In this document: in pieces, positions 36,466 through 51,001 of the stretch
How the letters are laid out: each line of letters begins with the position of its first letter
Position numbering within the stretch: the stretch's first letter is position 1
NCBI GenBank assembly: GCA_902524895.1
Contig: CABZFH010000001.1
Location: 186,876 to 250,875, forward strand
DNA: 64,000 bases
Direction: 5' to 3'
From: an uncultured Alphaproteobacteria bacterium
GTDB taxonomy: Bacteria > Pseudomonadota > Alphaproteobacteria > Methylaequorales > Methylaequoraceae
Made by a program: the position numbers and the translations under genes
The notes under the pieces: model-generated
Told to the model about the DNA's origin: nothing
The model's database searches: none
What the model saw: only the letters and a program-made list of their open reading frames with translations

Positions 36466-39144
36466 TTAAGATAATTTCTTTTTTATTTCATATAACAAGT
36501 CGAGAGCATCCTTAGGAGAAATTTTATCTGGTTCGATTTTTAAGAATATTTTTTTTATCTCAGATAAAGCACCATAATTTTCTTCGACATCCTGTTCAGT
36601 CTCACTATAACTTTTTATTTCAGAAATTTTCCCTCTATTTTGTTGTGCATCGTTTAATGATTCTAATATTTCTTTTGCTCTTTTTATAACCGATATAGGA
36701 ACTCCAGATAACTTGGCGACATGAATACCGTAAGAGCTTTTTGAAACACCATCAATAACTTTATACATAAATATAATTTCATCATTCCAATTCTTTGTCT
36801 TTAGAGTTTTTAACTTAATTTCGTTATGATTTGATTTAATATTCGTAAGTTCTTTGTAATGAGTAGCAAATAATGTTAAACATTTCTTTCTTTTAACTAT
36901 GTATTCTAATATTGCCCAGGCAAGCGATAAGCCATCACTATTAGAAGTTCCTCTACCTAATTCATCCAAAATTATTAAAGAGTTTTCTGATGCACCTATT
37001 AACATTCTAGCGGTCTCTATCATTTCAGTCATAAAAGTAGACAGACCTTGACTAAGGTCATCAGATGCCCCAATTCTAGTGTAAATTTTGTCCACGCAAC
37101 TTATTTTACATGACTCAGCTGGTACGAAACAACCCATTTGAGCCATTATAGTTATAATGGCTACCTGGCGTAAATATGTACTCTTTCCAGCCATATTAGG
37201 TCCCGTCATTAAAATTGTCTTTTCTGGGTTATTTAAAATGCAATCGTTTGCAACGAAAGAGGAACTAGTTTTTCTGTAGCTATTTTCTACAATAGGATGT
37301 CGCCCTTGAATTATTTCGAAACATTGCTCACTTGAAAACAATGGTTTGTTGTAATTTCTCTTTTTCGAAATATATGCATAATTTGTAATCACATCTATGA
37401 AAGATATTTTTTGAGTGAATGCATTAAGTAATTTAAATTGATTAATTACCTTTTGACTTACATCCTGATACAATTTTTTCTCTATTTCAATTGCTTTTGA
37501 TGATGCGGTTGCTATCTCTATAGATATTTCTTTTAGCTTAGGTGTTAAAAATCTTGAGGAATTAGTTGTATTTTGAATTAATTGAAACTCAAATCCTTCA
37601 TCTTGAATTAACTTATGAGAATTTTTTTTACTGACTTCAATAAAAAATCCATGGATATTGTTAAATTTAATTTTTAAAGTTGGAACATTAACATCCTCAG
37701 AGTATTTTTTTTGTAGAGCCAATACTTCTTTTTCTCTATATTTTTTTATATTTCTCAATTTATCTAGGTCATTTGATACTCCTTCTTTAATAAAATCTCC
37801 CTCATTCAGATTTGCTGGACAAGATTCTTTGATAATATTATCGATAGTTTTTTTTACTTCGTAAATCAATTCCAACTGACCCTTGTCAAAAACTAGTTTT
37901 TTGACTAATTCGTTATTCATTGAATTAATTTCTTTAAATGTACCTAGACTTTTATCTATGAAATTTGAAACAATCAACATGTCTCGTGGATTGTTGACAT
38001 TTGCAGATATCCTGGACAAAGTTCTATCCATATCAGGTAGATTTTTAAGATAAGCTCTAACATTAGATGTTGATAGATCTTCAGAAAAAAATGCATCAAC
38101 AAAATTTAACCTTTCTTCGATTTTTTTTGAACATTTTAATGGCATTTTAATCTGATTTCTTAGCATTCTTGCTCCACCAGAAGACATTGTTCGATCTAAA
38201 ATATCAATTAAACTTCCTCTTTTTTCTCCATTTTTTTTTCTAAAAATTTCTAGACTTTCATTTGATATTTGGTCAACTTCCAAATAGTCTTTTTCAGAAA
38301 CGACATTAATTTTAAGTATATTTGGAACATTGTTTTTTTGAGTAATTTGTAAATAGTTGATTAAAGATCCTGCTGTAGAAATACCTAAATCATTCAGGTC
38401 TGAAAAAATATTTAAAGATTCTAAACCGAAAAATCTTTTTAACTTTTCCTCATTATTTTTCCTATCAAAAGAATACTCAGAAACATATGTGACTTTATCA
38501 TTCCAAATTTTAAATATTTCTTTCAACCCAACTTTTTGTTGTATTCTTTCAGTTGTTATAATCTCACACGGTTCAATTTTAAAAAGTATATCCTTAAATT
38601 CAGCTTCATTATCAAGATAAGTTAAATTGAAAATACCTGTAGTCATATCTAGCCAAGAGACACAGTAGTTCCCTTTATCAACATAAACCCCGACCAAATA
38701 ATTAAAATCTTTTGAGTCTAATAACTGCTCCTCCATGAGAGTTCCAGGAGTAATAATTTTTACAACATCTCGAGATATTATTTTAGAATGTTTATTAGTA
38801 ACATCAATTTCAAACTTATCTTCAAATTGCTCAGCAATAGCAATTTTATGGCCTGATTTTATAATACGTGAAATATATGTCTGAGCAGAATGATATGGAA
38901 CCCCACACATCGGAATGTCTTCATCGTTATATTTCCCTCTTTTAGTTAAGGCAATGCCCAGTTCTTTGGAAGCAATTTTAGCATCATCAAAAAAAAGTTC
39001 GTAAAAATCTCCCATTCTGTAAAACAGTAAATATTCTTGATGCCTAGATTTGACTTCTAAATATTGTTTCATCATTGGAGTGGTTTTTGCTTTAACTAAC
39101 TCCAACTCAAATGGATCAATTATATTTTGTTGTTTAAGTTCCAC
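36466..39144 (-). CDS. mutS: DNA mismatch repair protein MutS
   Basis: 892 aa. TPMMKQY, GDFYELF mismatch-binding motif, Walker A GPNMAGKST, DELGRGTS. Confidence 0.97.
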   Translation of the reverse strand: MELKQQNIIDPFELELVKAKTTPMMKQYLEVKSRHQEYLLFYRMGDFYELFFDDAKIASKELGIALTKRGKYNDEDIPMCGVPYHSAQTYISRIIKSGHKIAIAEQFEDKFEIDVTNKHSKIISRDVVKIITPGTLMEEQLLDSKDFNYLVGVYVDKGNYCVSWLDMTTGIFNLTYLDNEAEFKDILFKIEPCEIITTERIQQKVGLKEIFKIWNDKVTYVSEYSFDRKNNEEKLKRFFGLESLNIFSDLNDLGISTAGSLINYLQITQKNNVPNILKINVVSEKDYLEVDQISNESLEIFRKKNGEKRGSLIDILDRTMSSGGARMLRNQIKMPLKCSKKIEERLNFVDAFFSEDLSTSNVRAYLKNLPDMDRTLSRISANVNNPRDMLIVSNFIDKSLGTFKEINSMNNELVKKLVFDKGQLELIYEVKKTIDNIIKESCPANLNEGDFIKEGVSNDLDKLRNIKKYREKEVLALQKKYSEDVNVPTLKIKFNNIHGFFIEVSKKNSHKLIQDEGFEFQLIQNTTNSSRFLTPKLKEISIEIATASSKAIEIEKKLYQDVSQKVINQFKLLNAFTQKISFIDVITNYAYISKKRNYNKPLFSSEQCFEIIQGRHPIVENSYRKTSSSFVANDCILNNPEKTILMTGPNMAGKSTYLRQVAIITIMAQMGCFVPAESCKISCVDKIYTRIGASDDLSQGLSTFMTEMIETARMLIGASENSLIILDELGRGTSNSDGLSLAWAILEYIVKRKKCLTLFATHYKELTNIKSNHNEIKLKTLKTKNWNDEIIFMYKVIDGVSKSSYGIHVAKLSGVPISVIKRAKEILESLNDAQQNRGKISEIKSYSETEQDVEENYGALSEIKKIFLKIEPDKISPKDALDLLYEIKKKLS

Positions 39145-39187: not shown

Positions 39188-40435
39188 ATGTATATTCATA
39201 AAGAATTAATTTCTATACTTTGTTTGATTTTATCTATTGGTGGAATAATTGTTTATAAATTCTTTAGAGACTTCCAACGACTTAATGCTGAACTTAAAAA
39301 ATGGAAAAAGAAACCATTATCTGCAAGAGACTATTTTTTTTTTCATCAATTTGAGCCTGTTGTATTTAATCTGAATTCACATTTAAAAAACTACAACAGT
39401 TCCATTAAAAAAAATAAACGACAGATTTTATTTTATGAAAAGTTTTTCGACTTATTTCCTGATCCTTTGTTTATTGTTGATGAAATCAATCAAATAGTAG
39501 AACTGAACCTTAGCGCAACCAAGCTTGTAGGAAGAGACGCCAAAACAAAAAATATTAATTCAGTTTTAAGGATTCCAAATTTAGGTGATTTAATAATGAA
39601 ATCAAACTTTGAAAAGAAGCCACAAATTTCAACACTAAAACTCGTTTATCCAGTTGAAACGATCTATACAGTTTGGGTTTCCGGAAGTAGTAAATTTATT
39701 AAAAATAAGCTAAATTTTATAAGACTTTATGACTGTACTTCAGAAAAAAAAGTCCAAGAATTACAAACAGAGTTTGTAGCTAACGTTAGTCATGAGTTAA
39801 AAACACCCGTATCAGCGATGGTTGGTTATTGTGAAACATTACTGGGAATTGGAAAAAAAGACGATAAGGTTAGAACAAAGTTTCTTAAAATTCTAAAGAA
39901 AGAGTCTTTGAGAATGAGTTCTCTTGTAAGTGATCTTCTATCCCTTACAAGAATTGAAAGAATAGAACACACAAAACCTGAAGGTATTGTAAATTTAAAT
40001 AAACTTTTAAATGAAATTCAAGATAGTTATTCATCGTCGTTTAAGAACAATAAAATTCTCAAATTAATTATGTCTTCAAAAGAAATAGAAACGATTGGCG
40101 ACTATAATGAATTAAAACAAGTTTTTATAAATATTATCGATAATGCAATTAAATATAGTGATTCAAAATCACCTATTGAATTAAAGGTAAAACCAAATCA
40201 AGAATTAATAAATATCTCAATAAAAGACTTTGGTAAAGGAATCAATGAAAGTGATATACCAATGCTTACTAATAGGTTTTATAGAGTAGATTCTACAAGA
40301 TCTAGAGATCTTGGAAGCACAGGATTAGGCCTATCAATTGTCAAACATATTTTAAACAGGCATCAAAGCGAATTAAGTATTAAATCAAAGATTAATGAAG
40401 GTTCAGAATTCTCCTTTAACCTCCCAATAAAATAA
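39188..40435 (+). CDS. phoR: Phosphate regulon sensor histidine kinase PhoR
   Basis: 415 aa. N-terminal TM, PAS-like region, HisKA H-box SHELKTP, HATPase_c (DNAIKY, GTGLGLSIVK). Lies in the pst/pho locus. Confidence 0.88.
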   Translation: MYIHKELISILCLILSIGGIIVYKFFRDFQRLNAELKKWKKKPLSARDYFFFHQFEPVVFNLNSHLKNYNSSIKKNKRQILFYEKFFDLFPDPLFIVDEINQIVELNLSATKLVGRDAKTKNINSVLRIPNLGDLIMKSNFEKKPQISTLKLVYPVETIYTVWVSGSSKFIKNKLNFIRLYDCTSEKKVQELQTEFVANVSHELKTPVSAMVGYCETLLGIGKKDDKVRTKFLKILKKESLRMSSLVSDLLSLTRIERIEHTKPEGIVNLNKLLNEIQDSYSSSFKNNKILKLIMSSKEIETIGDYNELKQVFINIIDNAIKYSDSKSPIELKVKPNQELINISIKDFGKGINESDIPMLTNRFYRVDSTRSRDLGSTGLGLSIVKHILNRHQSELSIKSKINEGSEFSFNLPIK

Positions 40436-40774: not shown

Positions 40775-42172
40775 ATGAACAAATTGTTAGTTACTGGAGC
40801 TGTGATGGCGGTTACAGGATTTAGTTCTCAAGCAGTGAGCACTGAAGCACAAATTGATGCTTTACAAAACGAAATATTAAAGATTAAACAGGATATGGCA
40901 TCCGATAAAAGTAAAGCTTATTTTAAAAAAGGCAAAGGCCTAAGTATTAAAAGTTCTGATGGAAAGTTTAGCTTTGAAATTAAAGGTAGGCTGATGTATG
41001 ACTTATCTGCTATTACTGCAGGTAATGACACGGTTGATAACCCGAGTAGAGCTGATAATATTGGAACTTTTGGTAATGAATTTAGAAGAGCTAGATTCAC
41101 TATAAAAGGTGAAGTTGGAGATGGATGGGGCTTCGCATTCCAACCTGATTTTGCTGAAACAGTTGCTGATAATGTTGGTGGCTCAGCAACCGGACCAAAG
41201 GGTGTTGATGTTAAGGACGCTTTAATTTATAAGAAAATTAAAGGCATTGGTAAGATCTCAATTGGAAACGTAAAGTCTGCAGGTGGTCTTTGGGAGAATA
41301 CAAGTTCAAATAGTATTCTTTTCATGGAAAGACCAATGTATAACGAAGCAGCTAACCTAGCACACAGAGCTGGAATTCATTACGATACAGCAGGTGCCTT
41401 TGGAAAGAAATTCCCTCTTCATTTAAAGGCAACACTTGGTGTTGGTGCTGAAGGAGCATGGAGGCAGGAGCAAGAAGACAGTGATACTATTGAAGATAAT
41501 TATGTAGCTTCTGTTGCCACTCATTATACTCATGTGGTGGGTAAGAAACACTATGTAATGATAGGTGGATCGTATACGTATGAAAATCATTCTGATCTTA
41601 GGACAAGGTCTGTAGAAGCCAGAGCTCAAGGGGTTCATACCTTAGGTGAGAAAATTCTAGACACAAACCTTTCTGATATCGAAAGTTATTCTTATGGGGG
41701 ACCACAATTTGCATATTCTAATGGTCCACTTTTTACGGCTGGAGAGTATTATTATGTCAATGCTTCTAGACTTCCAGACTCTGCTGATGATTTAAAAACT
41801 TATGATGATTATAACGCAAATGGTGCATCAATCTTTGCTCATTATTTTCTAACTGGTGGAGCGCACGTTGCGCTAAAACCTGCAAAAGGTTCAATAAGTG
41901 GTGTTAAGTGTAAGGCTGCAATGGGGTGCACTGCCGCTAAAGTAATGTTTGAATTTGCTAACTTTGCCTCTGATGAAGCATCAGAAAATGCAACTGACGC
42001 AAAGGTAATTCACATGGGTTTAAATCACTATTTTAACAGTAATGTAAGATTAATGATCGACGCAGCGAGAGGTCTTTATCAAGGTGGAACTGGAATGTCA
42101 ACAGATGCCAAGGGTACCAATGTCACACATAATATGACAAGTATTCAAACTAGACTTCATTTAAAATGGTAA
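40775..42172 (+). CDS. Phosphate-selective porin O/P family outer-membrane protein
   Basis: 465 aa. Signal peptide, N-terminal coiled-coil (QIDALQNEILKIKQDM), beta-barrel-like alternating pattern, C-terminal aromatic residue (LHLKW). Located between phoR and pstS. Confidence 0.75.
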   Translation: MNKLLVTGAVMAVTGFSSQAVSTEAQIDALQNEILKIKQDMASDKSKAYFKKGKGLSIKSSDGKFSFEIKGRLMYDLSAITAGNDTVDNPSRADNIGTFGNEFRRARFTIKGEVGDGWGFAFQPDFAETVADNVGGSATGPKGVDVKDALIYKKIKGIGKISIGNVKSAGGLWENTSSNSILFMERPMYNEAANLAHRAGIHYDTAGAFGKKFPLHLKATLGVGAEGAWRQEQEDSDTIEDNYVASVATHYTHVVGKKHYVMIGGSYTYENHSDLRTRSVEARAQGVHTLGEKILDTNLSDIESYSYGGPQFAYSNGPLFTAGEYYYVNASRLPDSADDLKTYDDYNANGASIFAHYFLTGGAHVALKPAKGSISGVKCKAAMGCTAAKVMFEFANFASDEASENATDAKVIHMGLNHYFNSNVRLMIDAARGLYQGGTGMSTDAKGTNVTHNMTSIQTRLHLKW

Positions 42173-42200: not shown

Positions 42201-42238
42201 AAGAGCCTAAAAAATTGTTTCTTAGGCTCTTTTTTTTT
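42201..42238 (+). terminator. Rho-independent terminator after porin gene
   Basis: Perfect 9-bp stem AGAGCCTAA (42202-42210) / TTAGGCTCT (42222-42230), 11-nt loop, followed by T8 (42231-42238). Confidence 0.8.
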
Positions 42239-42301
42239 ATGTTGCAATGATTAGCAAATATTATTTAGATTAGTTAAATACAAAAATTTAATAAAAAGCT
42301 T

Positions 42302-43192
42302 ATGAAAATTCTAATTAATGGAATCGGAAGAATAGGGAAACTTATTGCAAGAGAGCTTTTGGAAAAAGATTCAAATTTAAAATTAGTTTTTATTAATGAT
42401 ATTAACGGAGATGCAGAAACTCAGGCCCATTTGTTGGAATTCGATTCTATTCACGGTCAATGGGATAAAAAAATTAAATTCAATAAAAATAAAATAAAAA
42501 TTGGTTCAAACACTTTATTTTGTTACTCCGAAAATGAATTAAGGGGGTTACCAATCAGGGAGTTTAATATTGATATTGCAATTGATTGTACGGGTAAAAA
42601 CAAAACTACAGATCAGTTAAATCACTACTTCAATCAAGGCGTAAAAAAAGTTTTAGTTTCAGCTCCAATAAGCGAAAAATCACAATCGATTGTTAATTTA
42701 GTTTATGGGGTTAATCATCATATTTATAATCCAAATATTCATAATATAATTACAGCTGCAAGCTGCACTACTAATAGTATTGCTCCTATAATTTTAGTTT
42801 TGAAAAAAGAGTTTGGGATTGAAAGTTGTTGTGTAACTACTATCCATGATGTAACTAATACACAAGTTATAGCAGACATCCCTAAAAAAGATCTAAGAAG
42901 ATCAAGATCCTCTATTAATAATTTAATTCCTACAACGACTGGGTCAGCCAAGGCAATCACATTGATATACCCTGAATTAGAGGGAAAAATAGATGAAGTT
43001 AATAAAATGTTCGAGAAGTACTCCCAAAAAATTTTAAAAGGAATATTAAGTATTGAAAAAAGACCTTTAGTAAGTTCGGATTTTTTAAACAATCCTAACT
43101 CCGTTATTATTGATACCTTATCAACAATGGTTGTTAATAAAAAATTACTAAAAGTTTTTGGTTGGTATGATAATGAATATGCTATGCGCTAA
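42302..43192 (+). CDS. gap: Glyceraldehyde-3-phosphate dehydrogenase-like protein (ArsJ-associated type); appears internally deleted and 3'-frameshifted, possibly a pseudogene
   Basis: NGIGRIGK Rossmann motif, ASCTTNS catalytic Cys, TTIHDVTNTQ, WYDNEY. It lacks about 27 residues (the ...RVPT... strand) between GKI and EVNKMF. The conserved C-terminal helix YALRIIDILKLISKKI* is encoded in the -1 frame at 43183-43233. Confidence 0.7.
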   Translation: MKILINGIGRIGKLIARELLEKDSNLKLVFINDINGDAETQAHLLEFDSIHGQWDKKIKFNKNKIKIGSNTLFCYSENELRGLPIREFNIDIAIDCTGKNKTTDQLNHYFNQGVKKVLVSAPISEKSQSIVNLVYGVNHHIYNPNIHNIITAASCTTNSIAPIILVLKKEFGIESCCVTTIHDVTNTQVIADIPKKDLRRSRSSINNLIPTTTGSAKAITLIYPELEGKIDEVNKMFEKYSQKILKGILSIEKRPLVSSDFLNNPNSVIIDTLSTMVVNKKLLKVFGWYDNEYAMR

Positions 43193-43234
43193 GGATAATA
43201 GACATTTTAAAGTTAATATCAAAAAAAATATAAA

Positions 43235-44479
43235 GTGTTTCTCAATAATATTAGTCAACAAAATCTTTCTTATATTTCCGTTACGATGTCATATTGGCTT
43301 TTTATGCTCACTGATGGGGCTCTAAGAATTATTATTCTTTTCAATTTTCACTTACTGGGTTTTTCGCCATTAGATCTTGCTTATTTATTTTTCGTTTATG
43401 AATTAATGGGTATTTTAACTAATTTACTTGCAGGGTGGATAGCGGCTCGATTTGGTTTAAATATTACGCTTTATGGGGGGTTGATCATACAAATTTGTGC
43501 TTTGAGTCTTCTATTAAATTTAAATAACTTTGATTATACTTCTTCAAAATTAATATTTACAATTTTTGTATATGGCCTTTCGGGTATCGCTAAGGATTTG
43601 GTAAAAATGAGTGCAAAGTCATCAGTTAAATTAATTGTCAATGAAAATCAGCAATCAAAACTTTTTAAATGGGTTTCTACTCTTACTGGCTCAAAAAACG
43701 CAGTTAAAGGATTAGGTTTTTTCCTAGGTGGGGCCTTGATGAGTTTTTTTAATTTTAAAATATCAATAATTATTATGACATTATGTTTAATTATTTTGAT
43801 TTTATTTTTAATGTTATCAAAACCGATAATTCAAAATAAAAAAATTAGAAGTAAACAAATTAAACTTTTTTCAAAATCTAAAAAAATTAACTATCTTTCT
43901 TTTTCTAGAATATTTTTGTTTGGTGCGAGAGATATTTGGTTTGTTGTTAGTCTCCCAATTTTTCTTTATGAAACTTTAAGAAATTTTGACATTACTGATT
44001 CAAAAGCATTCTTTCTTGATGGAGGCTTTCTAGCACTTTGGGTAATATTTTATGGTATTACTCAAGCTTTTACACCAAAAATTATAAACATATCAACAAA
44101 TAATGTTGCAACTCTAATTAAAAGGTCAAAAATATGGTTTCTACATCTTTTGTTTTGCTCAGCAGTAATATCAATAATCAGCTTTTTGTTGAATGATAGT
44201 AACTATTATGTATATTTTTTAATTTTTGGACTTTTTTTATTTGGTATATTATTTGCTGTTAATTCATCGTTACATTCTTTTTTCATACTTGCATTTTCGA
44301 ACAAAATCAATGTTACACTTGACGTAGGTTTTTACTACATGTCAAATGCAACCGGAAGGTTTGTTGGAACATTACTATCAGAGCTAACCTACCAATATTT
44401 TGGTATAGTTGGGGCATTATTTTGCTCAACGATATTCATACCAATAGGGTTACTTTATTTCCTAAAACTAGAAAACTAA
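43235..44479 (+). CDS. arsJ: MFS-type permease resembling organoarsenical (1-arseno-3-phosphoglycerate) efflux permease ArsJ
   Basis: 414 aa, about 11-12 TM helices. N-terminus YWLFMLTDGALRIIILFNFHLLGFSPLDLAYLFFVYELMGILTNLLAGW matches my recollection of the ArsJ family. Sits directly downstream of a GAPDH-like gene, the hallmark ArsJ context. Confidence 0.6.
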   Translation: MFLNNISQQNLSYISVTMSYWLFMLTDGALRIIILFNFHLLGFSPLDLAYLFFVYELMGILTNLLAGWIAARFGLNITLYGGLIIQICALSLLLNLNNFDYTSSKLIFTIFVYGLSGIAKDLVKMSAKSSVKLIVNENQQSKLFKWVSTLTGSKNAVKGLGFFLGGALMSFFNFKISIIIMTLCLIILILFLMLSKPIIQNKKIRSKQIKLFSKSKKINYLSFSRIFLFGARDIWFVVSLPIFLYETLRNFDITDSKAFFLDGGFLALWVIFYGITQAFTPKIINISTNNVATLIKRSKIWFLHLLFCSAVISIISFLLNDSNYYVYFLIFGLFLFGILFAVNSSLHSFFILAFSNKINVTLDVGFYYMSNATGRFVGTLLSELTYQYFGIVGALFCSTIFIPIGLLYFLKLEN

Positions 44480-45024
44480 ATTTTACCATCTAGACCCATT
44501 TGAAAGTATTTATGAATAATTTTGTCTTGGTTTTCGAGTAACCAGTCAATATTTGGTTCATCGTTCATAGCCTTTTGAATTGACTGAGCAGTTGCTTTTC
44601 TATGAATATCAAACAAAATCTTATGATCTAAATTATCATCAGTTGCCACGGAAGGATTTAACCAAACCGAAACAATAATTCCTAGTTCATTAGCCTTTTC
44701 CTTTGGAATATCTCCTGCTCTAACAGAATCAAGAACACCATTAGCAATCGCTGCCTGGACTGTTCCCATCAAAATATTTGTATATCTTTCTTTATTAACA
44801 GTAACTTTACTCACCATTAATGTAGCGGGTCTAACCATAACATCGGTATTCATTATCGCTAAAACCTTTGAATGTCCTTTAGTCTGATTTCCCATTAAAT
44901 TAGCAAATGCGGTACCAAATGGACCATTCATCTCTCCAATAACAACTTCTGGCTCAGCTGCAGTTCCGGGAGGTCCACCAGCTACTAATGATTCTCCAAC
45001 TCTCATAATAAATTTATTTGTCAT
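44476..45024 (-). CDS. fae: Formaldehyde-activating enzyme (Fae) family protein
   Basis: 182 aa. Collinear with methylotroph Fae as I recall it (RVGESLV.G...VVIGE..GP.GTAFANL, ATLMVSKVTVN, GDIPKEKANELGIIVSVW). Confidence 0.65.
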   Translation of the reverse strand: MTNKFIMRVGESLVAGGPPGTAAEPEVVIGEMNGPFGTAFANLMGNQTKGHSKVLAIMNTDVMVRPATLMVSKVTVNKERYTNILMGTVQAAIANGVLDSVRAGDIPKEKANELGIIVSVWLNPSVATDDNLDHKILFDIHRKATAQSIQKAMNDEPNIDWLLENQDKIIHKYFQMGLDGKI

Positions 45025-45188: not shown

Positions 45189-46238
45189 ATGAGAAAAACC
45201 TATTTTATTGCCACACTTCTGGCTTTTGGATTTTCTAGTGCAGCATTTGCACGAGATCAGATAAAAATTGTTGGATCATCAACATTTTACCCTTTTGCAA
45301 CGGTAGTTGCTGAGAGGTTTGGAAAAACAAGTGGATTCAAAACACCAGTAATAGAGTCAACTGGATCTGGTGGGGGATTAAAGCTTTTTTGCAAAGGCCT
45401 AGGCACAGAGCACCCAGATATTACAAATGCTTCTAGAAGAATCAAAGGTAAAGAAGTAAAAAAGTGCGCAGAAAATGGCGTTACTGATATCACTGAAATC
45501 AAGGTAGGATTCGACGGAATTGCTATGGCTAACGCTAAAAGTGGTCCAGTTCTTGAGTTAACGCTTAAAGATGTATACCTCGCTTTAGCAAAAGATGTTC
45601 CAGTTGATCCTAACGGTGATACAGTTAAGCCAAATCCATATAAAATGTGGAATGAAGTGAACCCGGCATTACCTGCAGCTCCTATAATAGTAATAGGCCC
45701 TCCTCCAACATCTGGTACAAGAGATGCCTTCAATGAATTAGCAATTGAAAGAGGCTGTAAAACATTTCCTGGAAGAAAAGCTTTAAAAAAGAAGGATAAG
45801 AGACTCTATAAGTCACAGTGCCGATCCGTAAGAGAAGACGGTCCTTATGTTGAAGCGGGCGAAAATGACAATCTAATAATTGAAAAACTAGTTGCCGATC
45901 CAGGTGCGCTAGGCGTTTTCGGTTATTCTTTCCTAGATCAAAATAGAGATAAAGTAAAGGCTGCAAAAGTTGACGGTGTCTTTCCAGAGTTTGAGGCAAT
46001 ATCCTCAGGAAAGTATCCTGTTTCTAGATCACTTTTCTTTTATGTGAAAAATGCTCATGCTGGAGTAATACCGGGCATGAAAGAGTACGTGAAAGAATTT
46101 ACCGCATCAAAGGCTATAGGAAGTGACGGATATCTAGTCGATAAAGGCTTAATTCCATTGGCTGAAAATGAAAGGGCACAATTTGAAGAAGATGGAACGA
46201 AGCTTACTAAATTTGATGGTAAAGTTTTAAATAAATAG
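45189..46238 (+). CDS. pstS: Phosphate ABC transporter substrate-binding protein PstS
   Basis: 349 aa. Signal peptide, GSSTFYPF, ESTGSGGG, SGTRD phosphate-binding motifs. Confidence 0.93.
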   Translation: MRKTYFIATLLAFGFSSAAFARDQIKIVGSSTFYPFATVVAERFGKTSGFKTPVIESTGSGGGLKLFCKGLGTEHPDITNASRRIKGKEVKKCAENGVTDITEIKVGFDGIAMANAKSGPVLELTLKDVYLALAKDVPVDPNGDTVKPNPYKMWNEVNPALPAAPIIVIGPPPTSGTRDAFNELAIERGCKTFPGRKALKKKDKRLYKSQCRSVREDGPYVEAGENDNLIIEKLVADPGALGVFGYSFLDQNRDKVKAAKVDGVFPEFEAISSGKYPVSRSLFFYVKNAHAGVIPGMKEYVKEFTASKAIGSDGYLVDKGLIPLAENERAQFEEDGTKLTKFDGKVLNK

Positions 46239-46245
46239 ATAATTA

Positions 46246-47625
46246 ATGGGTTTTTGGTCTTTTAGTGTTTTCATATTAATAATTGCAATTTCTGCATATT
46301 GGTATGGAAACACTAAGGCCTTGCGCCTAAATTCTAATTCTATTGAAAAACTTCCTTCACTACCTAAATACTATGGAAATTATGCTCTAATATGGCTTAT
46401 ATTTCCCTGTCTTTTAGGTGTCTTTTTATGGATAACTCTCAATACCTATATATTAGATACTATTTTAATTAATCATCTACCTAAGGAACTTGAAAATTCT
46501 TTTGCAGGAGGGATAAACATGTTGGTAGATAGAGTAAAAACAATAAATATTGATAACCCCTTTCCTGGAACAAACCCTGAGTTAATTGACGCAGCTATTT
46601 TTCTCGAAAATAAAAGTAATGAGGTGCGGGCTTATTTTCTATGGGGAATAATATCTATAAGTGTATTGCTTTGTTTTGTATCGTTAAAAAAAATATCTTT
46701 TAAATTTAAGGCAAGACAAGCTGTTGAAAAGTCAAATGTCACATTATTAATTTTATGTTCTATCGTTGCAATAATAACGACCGTTGGAATAGTTTTTTCA
46801 TTAATTTTTGAAGCAATGAGGTTTTTTGACCAAGTATCAATCTTTGATTTTTTATTTGGACTATCTTGGAGCCCTCAAATGGCAATTAGAGAAGATCAAG
46901 TTGCAAGTCAAGGATCATTCGGAGCTATACCACTCTTCACAGGAACTTTGTTAATAACCTTGATAGCAATGTTGGTAGCAATACCTGTTGGACTTGCCTC
47001 CGCTATTTATTTAGCTGAATATTCATCCTCAACCACAAGGTCTATAATAAAGCCCTTATTAGAAATATTAGCTGGGGTTCCAACAGTTGTGTATGGGTTT
47101 TTCGCTGCTATTACGGTTGGACCTTTCTTTCGAGAGTTTGCTGATTTTTTTGGTTTCAATATAGCTTCTGAGAGTGCAATTGCTGCTGGTGGGGTGATGG
47201 GAATAATGATCATCCCATTTATTTCTTCACTCTCAGATGATGTGATCTCAGCCGTTCCTCAATCCCTAAGAGATGGATCTTACGCAATGGGTGCTACTCA
47301 TTCTGAAACAATTAAACGTGTGGTTTTACCCGCAGCCTTGCCTGGTATTGTGGGGGCGATTCTTCTTGCAGTATCAAGGGCTATTGGCGAAACAATGATT
47401 GTTGTTATGGCTGCAGGAATTGCTGCAAATTTAACTTCTAATCCCTTTGAAGCTGTAACAACTGTAACTGTCCAAATAGTAACATTATTAGTTGGTGATC
47501 AAGAATTTGACAGTGCCAAAACACTTGCTGCATTTGCTTTGGGAATTACCCTATTTTGTATGACATTATTCTTAAACCTTTATGCATTAAAAATCGTTCA
47601 AAGGTATCGTGAGAGATATGAATAA
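46246..47625 (+). CDS. pstC: Phosphate ABC transporter permease PstC (long form)
   Basis: 459 aa. EAA-loop region (AMGATHSETIKRVVLPAALPGI). N-terminal extension relative to the E. coli protein. Confidence 0.92.
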   Translation: MGFWSFSVFILIIAISAYWYGNTKALRLNSNSIEKLPSLPKYYGNYALIWLIFPCLLGVFLWITLNTYILDTILINHLPKELENSFAGGINMLVDRVKTINIDNPFPGTNPELIDAAIFLENKSNEVRAYFLWGIISISVLLCFVSLKKISFKFKARQAVEKSNVTLLILCSIVAIITTVGIVFSLIFEAMRFFDQVSIFDFLFGLSWSPQMAIREDQVASQGSFGAIPLFTGTLLITLIAMLVAIPVGLASAIYLAEYSSSTTRSIIKPLLEILAGVPTVVYGFFAAITVGPFFREFADFFGFNIASESAIAAGGVMGIMIIPFISSLSDDVISAVPQSLRDGSYAMGATHSETIKRVVLPAALPGIVGAILLAVSRAIGETMIVVMAAGIAANLTSNPFEAVTTVTVQIVTLLVGDQEFDSAKTLAAFALGITLFCMTLFLNLYALKIVQRYRERYE

Positions 47626-48895
47626 AAATACTCAAATTATTAAATCCTCACTTTTGAAAAGAAAAAGGTCTGAAAAATATTTTAAGTACTTTGGGCTTAC
47701 AGGAATAATTGCAGCACTATTGTTTTTAACTATAATTATAACCTCTATCTTTACAACAGGAAAAAAGGCATTTAAACAAACAGCAATTAAATTAGAAATA
47801 TTTTTTGATCCTAAAATTATTGATCCTGAAAATAAAGGAACAGAGGAAACCTATAAATCTGCAAATTATAAAATCGTTATAAAAAATGCTTTATTAAATT
47901 ATTTTCCCTCTGTAAATAAAAGGATTGATATCAGAGACCTCACAAATTTTATTTCATCTTCAGAAGAAGAAAGACTTTTAGAAATGATACTTAAAGATAA
48001 CACTCTAATTGGTACCACCAAGGAACTATGGCTAACTGCTTCTTCAACTATTGATGTTATTCATAAAAATTTAGAAATGCTAAACATTACAGAAAAAGAT
48101 AGATTAATAGATAATAAAGAAAAAAAGTGGTTTACCAAGTTATTAGATGATGAAAAGCTAAAATTCCAATTCAATAAGACTTTTTTTACCTCCGCTGATT
48201 CAACTGAGCCAGAACAAGCTGGCATTTGGGGATCTGCCATGGGTTCGTTTTTTACTGTATTAGTTACACTTATTCTTTCATTTCCAATTGCTGTAGCGGC
48301 TGGTGTTTTTTTAGAAGAGTTAGCTCCAAAAAATAAATTCACTGATTTCCTAGAAGTTAACATTAACAATCTCGCAGCAGTGCCATCCATAATATTTGGA
48401 TTATTAGGATTAGCAATTTTCCTTAATGTTATGCATTTACCAAGGTCTGCTCCCATAGTTGGTGGATTAGTTCTTGCTTTGATGACTCTGCCAACTATTA
48501 TTATTGCAACTAGAGCCTCACTAAAAGCTGTACCACCTTCAATACGTGAAGCTGCAATTGGATTAGGAGCTACAAAACTACAGACAGTTACTCATCACGT
48601 TCTTCCATTATCATTTCCAGGAATTTTAACAGGAACAATTATAGGTATGTCACAAGCACTGGGTGAAACAGCACCTCTATTGATGATAGGAATGGTAGCG
48701 TTTATTGTTGACGTTCCTGGGTCATTCTTAGATGCTTCAACTGCTCTACCAGTTCAGATATACCTTTGGAAAAGCACAGCTGCTAGAGGTTTTGTTGAAC
48801 TTGCGGCAGCTGGAGTTCTTATACTATTAACTTTTTTAATTCTTATGAACAGTTTCGCAGTTTACATAAGAAAAAAATATGAAAAAAAGTGGTAA
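47609..48895 (+). CDS. pstA: Phosphate ABC transporter permease PstA (long form)
   Basis: 428 aa. [23 protein letters not shown] loop. Overlaps the pstC end. Confidence 0.92.
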
Positions 48896-48899
48896 CTTA

Positions 48900-49664
48900 A
48901 TGAGTTCAAAAATTAAAATTTCTAGTAAAGATGTAAGTGTTTTTTATAGCCAAAATAAAGCTCTAAATAATATCACATTTGATATTGACGAAAAAAAAGT
49001 AACGTCCCTAATTGGGCCTAGCGGTTGTGGGAAATCAACATTTTTAAGATGCTTAAATAGAATGAATGACACTATAGATATTTGCAAAGTTAAAGGAAAA
49101 GTTTTAATAGATAACGAAGATATTTATGCCCCTAATGTTGATCCAGTTTTACTAAGAGCAAGAGTAGGTATGGTCTTTCAAAAGCCTAATCCATTTCCAA
49201 AATCAATTTTTGACAATGTTGCGTATGGACCAAGCATTCACGGATTAGCTAGTAGTAAGGACGAACTAGAAAATATAGTTTTAACAAGTTTACAAAGAGC
49301 AGGTCTTTACAAAGAAGTAAAAAATAGATTATCTGAAACTGGAACATCTTTATCTGGAGGACAACAACAAAGACTTTGCATCGCTAGAGCTATTGCTGTT
49401 AGTCCAGAAATAATACTTATGGACGAGCCATGCTCTGCTTTAGATCCAATAGCTACGGCAATTGTCGAGGAGTTAATTGATGAACTTGTAAAGAACTACA
49501 CGATTGTTATTGTAACTCATTCTATGCAACAAGCAGCTCGTGTATCACAAAATACGGCTTTTTTTCATATGGGTAATTTAATTGAATTTGGATCTACTCA
49601 AAAAATTTTCTCCACACCTCAATTTAAACAAACGCAAGACTACATTACAGGAAAGATCGGATAA
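48900..49664 (+). CDS. pstB: Phosphate ABC transporter ATP-binding protein PstB
   Basis: Walker [10 protein letters not shown], signature LSGGQQQR, Walker B ILMDEP. ATG 48900 lies 4 nt after the pstA stop; the track ATG 48879 is the alternative. Confidence 0.95.
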
Positions 49665-49666
49665 GT

Positions 49667-50320
49667 ATGGATAAACATATAGTAACTAGTTACGATAATG
49701 ACTTAGAATATATAAAAATTTTGATTATAGAAATGGGTGTATTGTTAGAAAAGCAAACGTTTGAAGCAATAGAATTAATAAAACTGCATAATTTAAAAAT
49801 AATGCCTACGATTAGAGAAACAGAAAAAAAAATTAATTCTGCAGAAAAAAGAATAAGAGAATATTCAACAAACACATTAACAAAAAGACAACCGTTAGCG
49901 GATGATTTGAGAAAAATTATTGTATCCATAAAAATTGCAAGCACTCTTGAAAGAATTGGAGACCATGCTGAAAATATTGCAAACAGAATTGAGCAAGCAA
50001 AAATAGTTCCTACTAATTATTTGACTGATTCAATTTATAGGTTAGGGCAATCGGTTATTAAAAACTTATCGCAAGCTCTAACAGCATATGATCAAAATTC
50101 CATAACACTATCTAAAAATGTTTCGCTTGAGGATAAAAAAATAGACCTATTATATGAAACGTGTTTTAGAGAACATCTTGTGCTTATGATGGAAGATAAC
50201 AAAAATATCAGTTATTTTACTCAGATGTTGTTTATTGCTAAAGAACTAGAACGCATAGGAGACCTTTGCAAAAATATTGCAAAAGAAGTTAGTTATAGTG
50301 TGGAAGGCAAGATATCTTAA
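49667..50320 (+). CDS. phoU: Phosphate signalling complex protein PhoU
   Basis: 217 aa. Duplicated PhoU repeat with ERIGDH / ERIGDL motifs. Confidence 0.93.
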   Translation: MDKHIVTSYDNDLEYIKILIIEMGVLLEKQTFEAIELIKLHNLKIMPTIRETEKKINSAEKRIREYSTNTLTKRQPLADDLRKIIVSIKIASTLERIGDHAENIANRIEQAKIVPTNYLTDSIYRLGQSVIKNLSQALTAYDQNSITLSKNVSLEDKKIDLLYETCFREHLVLMMEDNKNISYFTQMLFIAKELERIGDLCKNIAKEVSYSVEGKIS

Positions 50321-51001
50321 ATGTCTAAATCGATTCTAATTGCTGAAGACGATACTTCATTATTACCTCTTTTAGCATATAATTTGAAAAATAATGGTTT
50401 TAAAGTTATTCAAGCGAAGAATGGAGAAGAGGCATTATTAGCATTAAAAGAAAATTTGCCAGATCTTTTATTACTTGATTGGATGATGCCTTCACCAAAT
50501 GGAATTGAAATTTGTAAAATTCTTAGACAAAAAAAAGAAACTAAAAATATTCCAATTATTATGCTCACTGCTAAAAGTGAGGAAGATAACAAAATTGTTG
50601 GACTAGAAAGTGGTGCTGACGATTATATTATAAAACCTTTTAGCACAACGGAACTAATAGCCAGAATTAAAGCTCTTCTAAGAAGAAGTTATACTACCTT
50701 TGATGTCGATATTTTAGAATATAAAAATTTAAAAATTAATCTCAAAGAATATAGAACTTACAGAAATGATAGAACTATCCACTTAGGACCGAAGGAATTT
50801 AAATTATTAAAATATCTTATGGAAAATCCAGGAAGAGTTTTTAGCCGTGAACAATTACTAAACGCTGTTTGGGGACATGGTATTTTTGTAGAATTAAGAA
50901 CAGTTGACACTCACATTAGAAGGCTTCGAAAATCTATAAATCTAAAAGGTGAGCACAATTTGATACGCACAGTCAGATCAGCTGGATACTCTTTAGATTA
51001 A
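50321..51001 (+). CDS. phoB: Phosphate regulon response regulator PhoB (OmpR family)
   Basis: 226 aa. Receiver domain (ILIAEDD, LLLDWMMP, LTAK) plus winged-helix (LGPKEFKLLKYLM, VDTHIRRLRK). Starts 1 nt after the phoU stop. Confidence 0.92.
   Translation: MSKSILIAEDDTSLLPLLAYNLKNNGFKVIQAKNGEEALLALKENLPDLLLLDWMMPSPNGIEICKILRQKKETKNIPIIMLTAKSEEDNKIVGLESGADDYIIKPFSTTELIARIKALLRRSYTTFDVDILEYKNLKINLKEYRTYRNDRTIHLGPKEFKLLKYLMENPGRVFSREQLLNAVWGHGIFVELRTVDTHIRRLRKSINLKGEHNLIRTVRSAGYSLD

Follow-up and report, generated by a model that had tools for sequence, protein, structure and literature searches.

The gap gene that adjoins arsJ in the stretch of DNA analysed here (64,000 nucleotides, referred to as the window) is very probably a genuine ArsJ-associated GAPDH gene that was inactivated recently, that is, a strain-level pseudogene in a cassette whose loss is polymorphic. 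We regard the window copy as a pseudogene because an allele about 99% identical to it is intact, because its lesions strike conserved columns and the C-terminal helix, and because relatives bear null alleles of independent origin. Decay of gap was among the explanations put forward in an earlier reading made from the letters of the DNA alone (hereafter the sequence-only reading), and it is the one that this evidence favours.

The host is an AT-rich uncultured marine alphaproteobacterium, whose named relatives are labelled in databases as 'Rickettsiales bacterium' MAGs, the only kind of label that a DnaK search returned. The cassette is embedded in a phosphate-regulon cluster made up of phoR, a porin gene, gap-arsJ, fae (on the opposite strand) and pstSCAB-phoU-phoB (Table 1). 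Arsenate enters cells via phosphate transporters. Judged by homology to the characterised systems of Pseudomonas, Halomonas and Vibrio, the GAPDH of the ancestral cassette would have coupled arsenate to glyceraldehyde-3-phosphate, and ArsJ would have exported arsenate, either as the adduct or free. The gap relic directly adjoins arsJ, its ancestral stop (43231-43233) being separated from the arsJ GTG (43235) by 1 nt, and no second or housekeeping gap gene was found within the 64-kb window. The neighbouring fae, inside the Pho cluster, is extremely conserved, with a pN/pS of 0.00 over 18 sequences. Just 3' of the porin gene, a hairpin at 42202-42238 (AGAGCCTAA, an 11-nt loop, TTAGGCTCT and then a T run) looks like a terminator which, going by its sequence, would leave a short promoter region (42240-42300) to gap-arsJ alone. 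The loop limit of the terminator scan was 8 nt and this hairpin was hence not flagged; the matches returned by the promoter and terminator scan were no more numerous than in shuffled sequence. The deletion carried by one of the contigs described below (L099) begins just upstream of the hairpin.

Table 1. Features of the gap-arsJ cassette and of its surroundings, in window coordinates.
Feature	Position	Strand	Basis or context
gap ORF, very probable pseudogene (ArsJ-associated GAPDH, 296 aa, lacking residues 232-258 and the last 16)	42302..43192	+	NF033735, 384 bits
TAGATG, surviving copy at the junction of the 81-nt (27-codon) deletion	42990..42995	+	Alignment with intact alleles
1-nt deletion site (GCC of Ala321 short of one C; shift to AMR*)	43182..43183	+	Consensus and intact-allele alignment
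Out-of-frame C-terminal helix relic, YALRIIDILKLISKKI*	43183..43233	+	15/16 residues equal to intact allele
arsJ (414 aa, GTG start, open ORF with radical private substitutions)	43235..44479	+	NF033734, 452 bits
arsJ substitutions V262D, G383E and L403P	44018-44020, 44381-44383, 44441-44443	+	Private to the window
PhoR-type histidine kinase	39188-40435	+	Upstream context
Phosphate-selective porin O/P	40775-42172	+	Upstream context
fae (formaldehyde-activating enzyme; convergent with arsJ, 4-nt overlap with arsJ end)	44476..45024	-	
pstS, pstC, pstA, pstB, phoU, phoB	45189..51001	+	Downstream context

The 296-aa ORF retained both GAPDH Pfam domains, the catalytic Cys155 (SCTTN) and His182 (TTIHD) and the NAD-binding domain, and it ended in WYDNEYAMR* at 43192, as the sequence-only reading had described. 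Scored against the NCBIfam models, for which the curated cut-offs are 450 bits (NF033735, ArsJ-associated GAPDH) and 400 bits (NF033734, ArsJ), the window gap matched NF033735, its best NCBIfam hit, in two stretches with 384.1 bits and failed the cut-off. The intact allele P0270 reached 464.9 bits in a single stretch, thus passing it, and an intact allele could be aligned end to end with the solved Bacillus enzyme 1gd1 (E = 1.8e-84).

Intact gap alleles were found in six contigs (L095, L096, L097, L098, L102 and L105), whose cassettes share 99.1-99.25% identity with that of the window. In these alleles, a gap gene of 337 aa stops 1 nt before the GTG of a 414-aa arsJ, carries GIAVRVPVLNTSLSDCVFQLKKKVTVD at residues 232-258 and ends in the tail WYDNEYAYALRMIDILKLISKKI*. 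An intact allele is therefore present in close relatives, and comparison with it marks the window lesions as derived. The window cassette differed from the intact alleles by only 17-20 substitutions per 2260 nt, which argues that the inactivation is recent. The sequence-only reading had allowed that a restored frame and a full RVP region in sister genomes would speak against decay; both the full region and the in-frame tail do exist in them, and what they reveal is polymorphism, not an artefact.

The relatives were sampled in several ways. A protein search, a cluster listing and look-ups of the encoding contigs yielded 14 marine-metagenome contigs (L081-L094), 97-99% identical to window positions 42241-44500 and with the same gene order; they were fetched via truncated proteins, which biases this set towards broken alleles. 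All 14 keep the 81 nt absent from the window, and their majority consensus encodes an intact 337-aa gap with its stop 1 nt before an intact 414-aa arsJ. Ten further contigs were chosen via the neighbouring porin, a choice that does not depend on whether gap is intact, and these were the source of L095-L098 and L102. A scan of JGI metagenomes gave 9 loci only, too sparse for allele frequencies, and contributed the intact L105 and a fusion deletion (L113). When a genome collection was scanned with the 296-aa ORF, no close relative appeared among the matches listed, which were mostly housekeeping GAPDHs at 28-42% identity; the FGWYDNEY pattern used in that scan is generic, so that distant housekeeping GAPDHs were returned. 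The exact window protein, when looked up, was linked to no recorded contig. The 337-aa GAPDH and the 414-aa ArsJ of this lineage were seen to share one 90%-identity cluster, that of protein P0272, which has 208 members and is represented by an ArsJ; a fused read-through gene call is the probable cause. The intact GAPDH was missed by homology search because it is filed in that ArsJ-represented cluster.

Alignment with the intact alleles defined the first lesion as the absence of exactly 81 nt, or 27 codons, comprising residues 232-258 (GIAVRVPVLNTSLSDCVFQLKKKVTVD) and with them R236 of the RVP segment. In the window, YPELEGKI runs straight into DEVNKMFEKYSQKILKGILS (also written DEVNKMFEKYSQ). 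The sequence-only reading had counted 15 codons between YPELEGKI and DEVNK, where there are none; its net estimate of about 27 missing residues, the RVP arginine included, nonetheless proved right. In the intact alleles, the missing stretch is flanked by two copies of TAGATG placed exactly 81 nt apart, of which the window keeps one, the trace expected when short direct repeats slip or recombine illegitimately. Deletion between such repeats is a classical mutational outcome. The deletion is in frame and was found in the window only, the 81 nt being kept in 21 out of 21 other aligned contigs that cover the position. The lost stretch takes in 17 columns that reach at least 90% conservation in a set of 49 ArsJ-associated GAPDHs and aligns with the Arg231 segment of 1gd1, so that the window gap lacks both the arginine of the RVP segment that contacts the substrate phosphate (Arg231, Bacillus numbering) and the strand pair to which it belongs.

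The second lesion is a single-base loss at 43182/43183. Where the intact alleles read GAA TAT GCC TAT GCG, the window reads GAA TAT GCT ATG CGC TAA, one C of the GCC codon for Ala321 being gone. The ancestral reading is thus EYAYALR and not EYGYALR, the form obtained when the lost base was taken for the G of a glycine codon. Consequently, the C-terminal helix that follows WYDNE is no longer in frame. The frame that starts at 43183 reads YALRIIDILKLISKKI* and had been recognized as a GAPDH C-terminal helix; 15 of its 16 residues equal those of the intact allele, which argues that the hidden C-terminus is not a chance resemblance. The stop of this frame (43231-43233) had been placed 1 nt 5' of the arsJ GTG, and the same spacing is found in the intact alleles. 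The same 1-nt deletion was found in L082, which comes from the Logan assembly of a different run; this contig keeps the 81 nt and has a further lesion of its own. The 1-nt deletions at 42467 and 43182 are found in all four possible pairings of presence and absence (L082, L088 and L100 are involved), which points to recombination between null alleles or to repeated slippage at the 42467 A8 run.

The likely consequences for the protein were explored with AlphaFold models. For the window product, the mean pLDDT was 70.7 and the pTM 0.67, with values of about 76-93 in the N-terminal domain and 35-71 in the catalytic domain, whereas a full-length family member modelled with the same alignment as a control (P0004) gave a mean pLDDT of 87.5 and a pTM of 0.87, with about 81-97 in the N-terminal domain and 90-98 in the catalytic domain (lower in the S-loop region). 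The elements that the window has lost form, in the control model, the strands 230-237 and 243-251 and the helix 320-336. This fold comparison, which the sequence-only reading had proposed, suggests that the catalytic domain of the window product is disrupted and agrees with inactivation, AlphaFold confidence being no measure of stability.

The window was not alone in carrying a broken cassette. Across 22 aligned contigs plus the window, gap showed 12 distinct inactivating point or indel alleles, the two of the window included: three nonsense alleles (L72*, E59* and E64*), seven single-base deletions (among them that at 43182), one 11-nt deletion and the 81-nt deletion of the window. Four null alleles were seen in arsJ (Q200*, one insertion and two single-base deletions). 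Larger losses were also found. In L113 (2501-2790), an internal deletion of about 1.9 kb has fused gap residues 1-51 directly to arsJ residues 345-399, and in L099 the whole cassette is gone, the last ~35 nt of arsJ being left beside fae. L099 (9189-10466, corresponding to window position 48200) also bears a nonsense mutation in pstA (TCA>TAA, codon 198), a combination that may hint at joint loss of high-affinity phosphate uptake and arsenate export.

Six flanking genes (mutS, phoR, porin, fae, pstS and pstC) contained no stop or indel allele in 97 kb of aligned sequence and had pN/pS values of 0.00-0.17, against 12 such alleles in 23 kb for gap (pN/pS 0.30) and 4 in 26 kb for arsJ (pN/pS 0.29). 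This comparison shows selection on the cassette to be relaxed relative to the neighbouring genes, the rise in pN/pS being modest. The value for gap lies well below 1, indicating that most of the variation predates inactivation or that the null alleles arose recently. Of the indel alleles, about half were 1-nt losses in A/T runs, which are also typical of sequencing error; the flanking genes, equally AT-rich, had none of them. Among the ten porin-selected contigs, both genes were intact in five (L095, L096, L097, L098 and L102), gap alone was broken in two (L100 and L101), arsJ alone in one (L103) and both in one (L104), and the cassette was deleted in the remaining one (L099). All five point lesions in this sample fell within the cassette, which represents 19% of the aligned bases (P ~3e-4). 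The mutS gene of the window (36466-39144, - strand) carried 10 private non-synonymous and 4 private synonymous changes, 6 of the 10 located in its variable C-terminal 20 codons and judged against three comparators only, and gave no clear sign of a mutator genotype.

The state of arsJ deserves separate consideration, since it had been taken as intact. That description holds for the reading frame: the ORF is open and full length, and its product scored 451.7 bits on NF033734 (residues 12-410 on profile positions 2-390 of 392), above the cut-off. It does not hold for the residues themselves, because family-invariant positions are not all retained. Compared with the intact allele, the arsJ of the window shows 1 private synonymous change and 6 private non-synonymous ones. 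The latter include G383E, at a glycine that all of 20 ArsJ homologues share, V262D, within a hydrophobic segment and at a position where those 20 always have V or I, and L403P near the C-terminus, at a position that varies among them (A, G, L, T, F). Nor does it extend to the relatives, in several of which arsJ is broken or deleted. From these substitutions, the window arsJ is probably decaying too. The frameshift moreover widens the distance between the gap stop and the downstream arsJ GTG, a start with no obvious ribosome-binding site, from 1 nt to 42 nt, and this may weaken translational coupling and so lower arsJ translation.

A different balance between the two genes, with gap dead and arsJ functional and under selection, exporting free arsenate or an adduct made by a housekeeping GAPDH, seems to us possible and yet doubtful. 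It draws on the open arsJ ORF and its score of 452 bits, on the open arsJ in 5 of the 8 distinct alleles that combine a broken gap with full arsJ coverage, and on the excess of distinct null alleles in gap (12) over arsJ (4). It also has a precedent in V. cholerae, where ArsJ gives most of the resistance even without the dedicated GAPDH, an arsJ deletion being far more sensitive than a varG deletion, and where the glycolytic Gap can make 1As3PG (PMC9601151). Several observations weigh against it, namely the private substitutions described above, the loss of arsJ in 3 of the 10 porin-selected contigs, about as frequent as that of gap (4 of 10), the possibly lower arsJ translation caused by the displaced gap stop, and the absence of a second gap gene from the 64-kb window.

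Rather unlikely, in our estimate, is that the recurrent null alleles represent selected loss and not neutral decay. The presumably Pho-controlled cassette would then leak triose phosphate and 3-phosphoglycerate and waste energy in a streamlined oligotroph at low arsenate stress. Were this so, strains would repeatedly knock the cassette out, and the state of their alleles would vary with the ratio of phosphate to arsenate in the water mass. The deletion of the cassette in L099, together with its pstA nonsense mutation, fits such a linked loss of uptake and detoxification.

We consider it very improbable that one or both lesions are artefacts of sequencing or assembly and that the real gene is intact, an option that the sequence-only reading had kept. 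For the frameshift, sequencing error is excluded by the presence of the same 1-nt deletion in L082, an independent assembly from a different data set, which makes it a real segregating allele. For the 81-nt deletion it is made unlikely only: this lesion is unique to the window among the 22 aligned contigs, and the source is possibly a MAG or a single-cell assembly, but the 6-bp repeat is too short for collapse in k-mer assembly and deletions of this kind are well-known mutations. The genes flanking the cassette in the window are, besides, free of frameshifts, and with so many other null alleles in the same population a broken gene is to be expected and is no anomaly. The idea that the shortened enzyme works, through a remodelled oxyanion site or a programmed ribosomal frameshift restoring the C-terminus, can be rejected with near certainty: the deletion is indeed in frame and spares Cys155, His182 and the NAD-binding domain, but no relative has the shortened architecture, relatives bear unrelated nonsense and frameshift lesions elsewhere in the gene, the intact alleles are in frame and need no shift (found only in the window and L082), a slippery heptamer is absent at GAATATGCTATGCG, family members hardly vary in the deleted stretch, and the catalytic domain of the window product is no longer confidently predicted.

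Recent inactivation of a once functional cassette thus being the preferred reading, a plausible course of events can be outlined. As the intact alleles show, the ancestor possessed a two-gene cassette in the phosphate-regulon cluster, with a gap of 337 aa and an arsJ of 414 aa. Loss of one C from the Ala321 codon would have come first, removing the C-terminal helix and leaving the gap stop 42 nt upstream of arsJ; the frameshift is probably the older lesion, because it is shared with another contig while the 81-nt deletion is private, an ordering that recombination could confound. Slippage or illegitimate recombination between the TAGATG repeats would then have eliminated 81 nt, and with them the arginine that contacts the substrate phosphate and two strands at the centre of the catalytic domain. 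Radical missense changes may subsequently have gathered in arsJ. Selection could have been relaxed by low arsenate stress where phosphate is replete, or by redundancy with another arsenic system.

These results bear on annotation, as an arsJ beside a GAPDH ORF would normally be read as working arsenate export, which is almost certainly not the case here, and surveys of arsenic resistance in ocean metagenomes based on gene presence would overcount this cassette. From an evolutionary point of view, the relatives form one population of at least 97% identity in which the loss of a conditionally useful cassette can be seen in all its stages, from intact copies through point-inactivated and internally deleted ones to complete excision. 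Given its position in a phosphate-regulon cluster, the frequencies of its alleles are testable against phosphate and arsenate gradients. The finding in a single genome is ordinary; the population pattern is a tidy case of gene loss in progress.

Literature searches returned no published account of this cassette decaying, and nothing relevant on ArsJ in SAR11 or ocean metagenomes. Polymorphic pseudogenes and gene loss are known from flexible genome regions of streamlined marine bacteria, and the pattern described here resembles them: strains that share at least 97% identity differ in many independent null alleles and in complete deletions, with flanks under strong purifying selection. Type I glycolytic GAPDHs (1gd1 of Bacillus stearothermophilus, E. 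coli GapA) belong to the same fold family as the window product and, like it, have the catalytic Cys and His, but the window product lacks their Arg231-bearing strand pair and C-terminal helix; the intact allele, too, is a member of the ArsJ-associated subfamily and not a housekeeping GAPDH. The closest parallels are the gapdh-arsJ pairs of Pseudomonas aeruginosa DK2, Halomonas GFAJ-1 (mfs2-gapdh) and Vibrio cholerae (varG-varH-arsJ). As in these, the intact allele comprises a dedicated GAPDH adjoining an MFS ArsJ, both proteins pass NF033735 and NF033734, respectively, and the 1-nt spacing between the genes is consistent with co-expression. The arsenic island of Halomonas GFAJ-1 links pst genes with mfs2-gapdh (PMC5930303), and the window cassette likewise adjoins pst genes. 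Unlike those pairs, the cassette in the window has a GAPDH that is very probably a pseudogene and an ArsJ with radical substitutions, includes neither arsR nor varH, has the order gap then arsJ, and is enclosed by the phoR-porin-pstSCAB-phoU-phoB cluster of its uncultured marine host, an AT-rich alphaproteobacterium. In its ancestral form the cassette is an ordinary gapdh-arsJ arsenate-resistance pair, and the window copy descends from a member of NF033735, a family for which it no longer qualifies.
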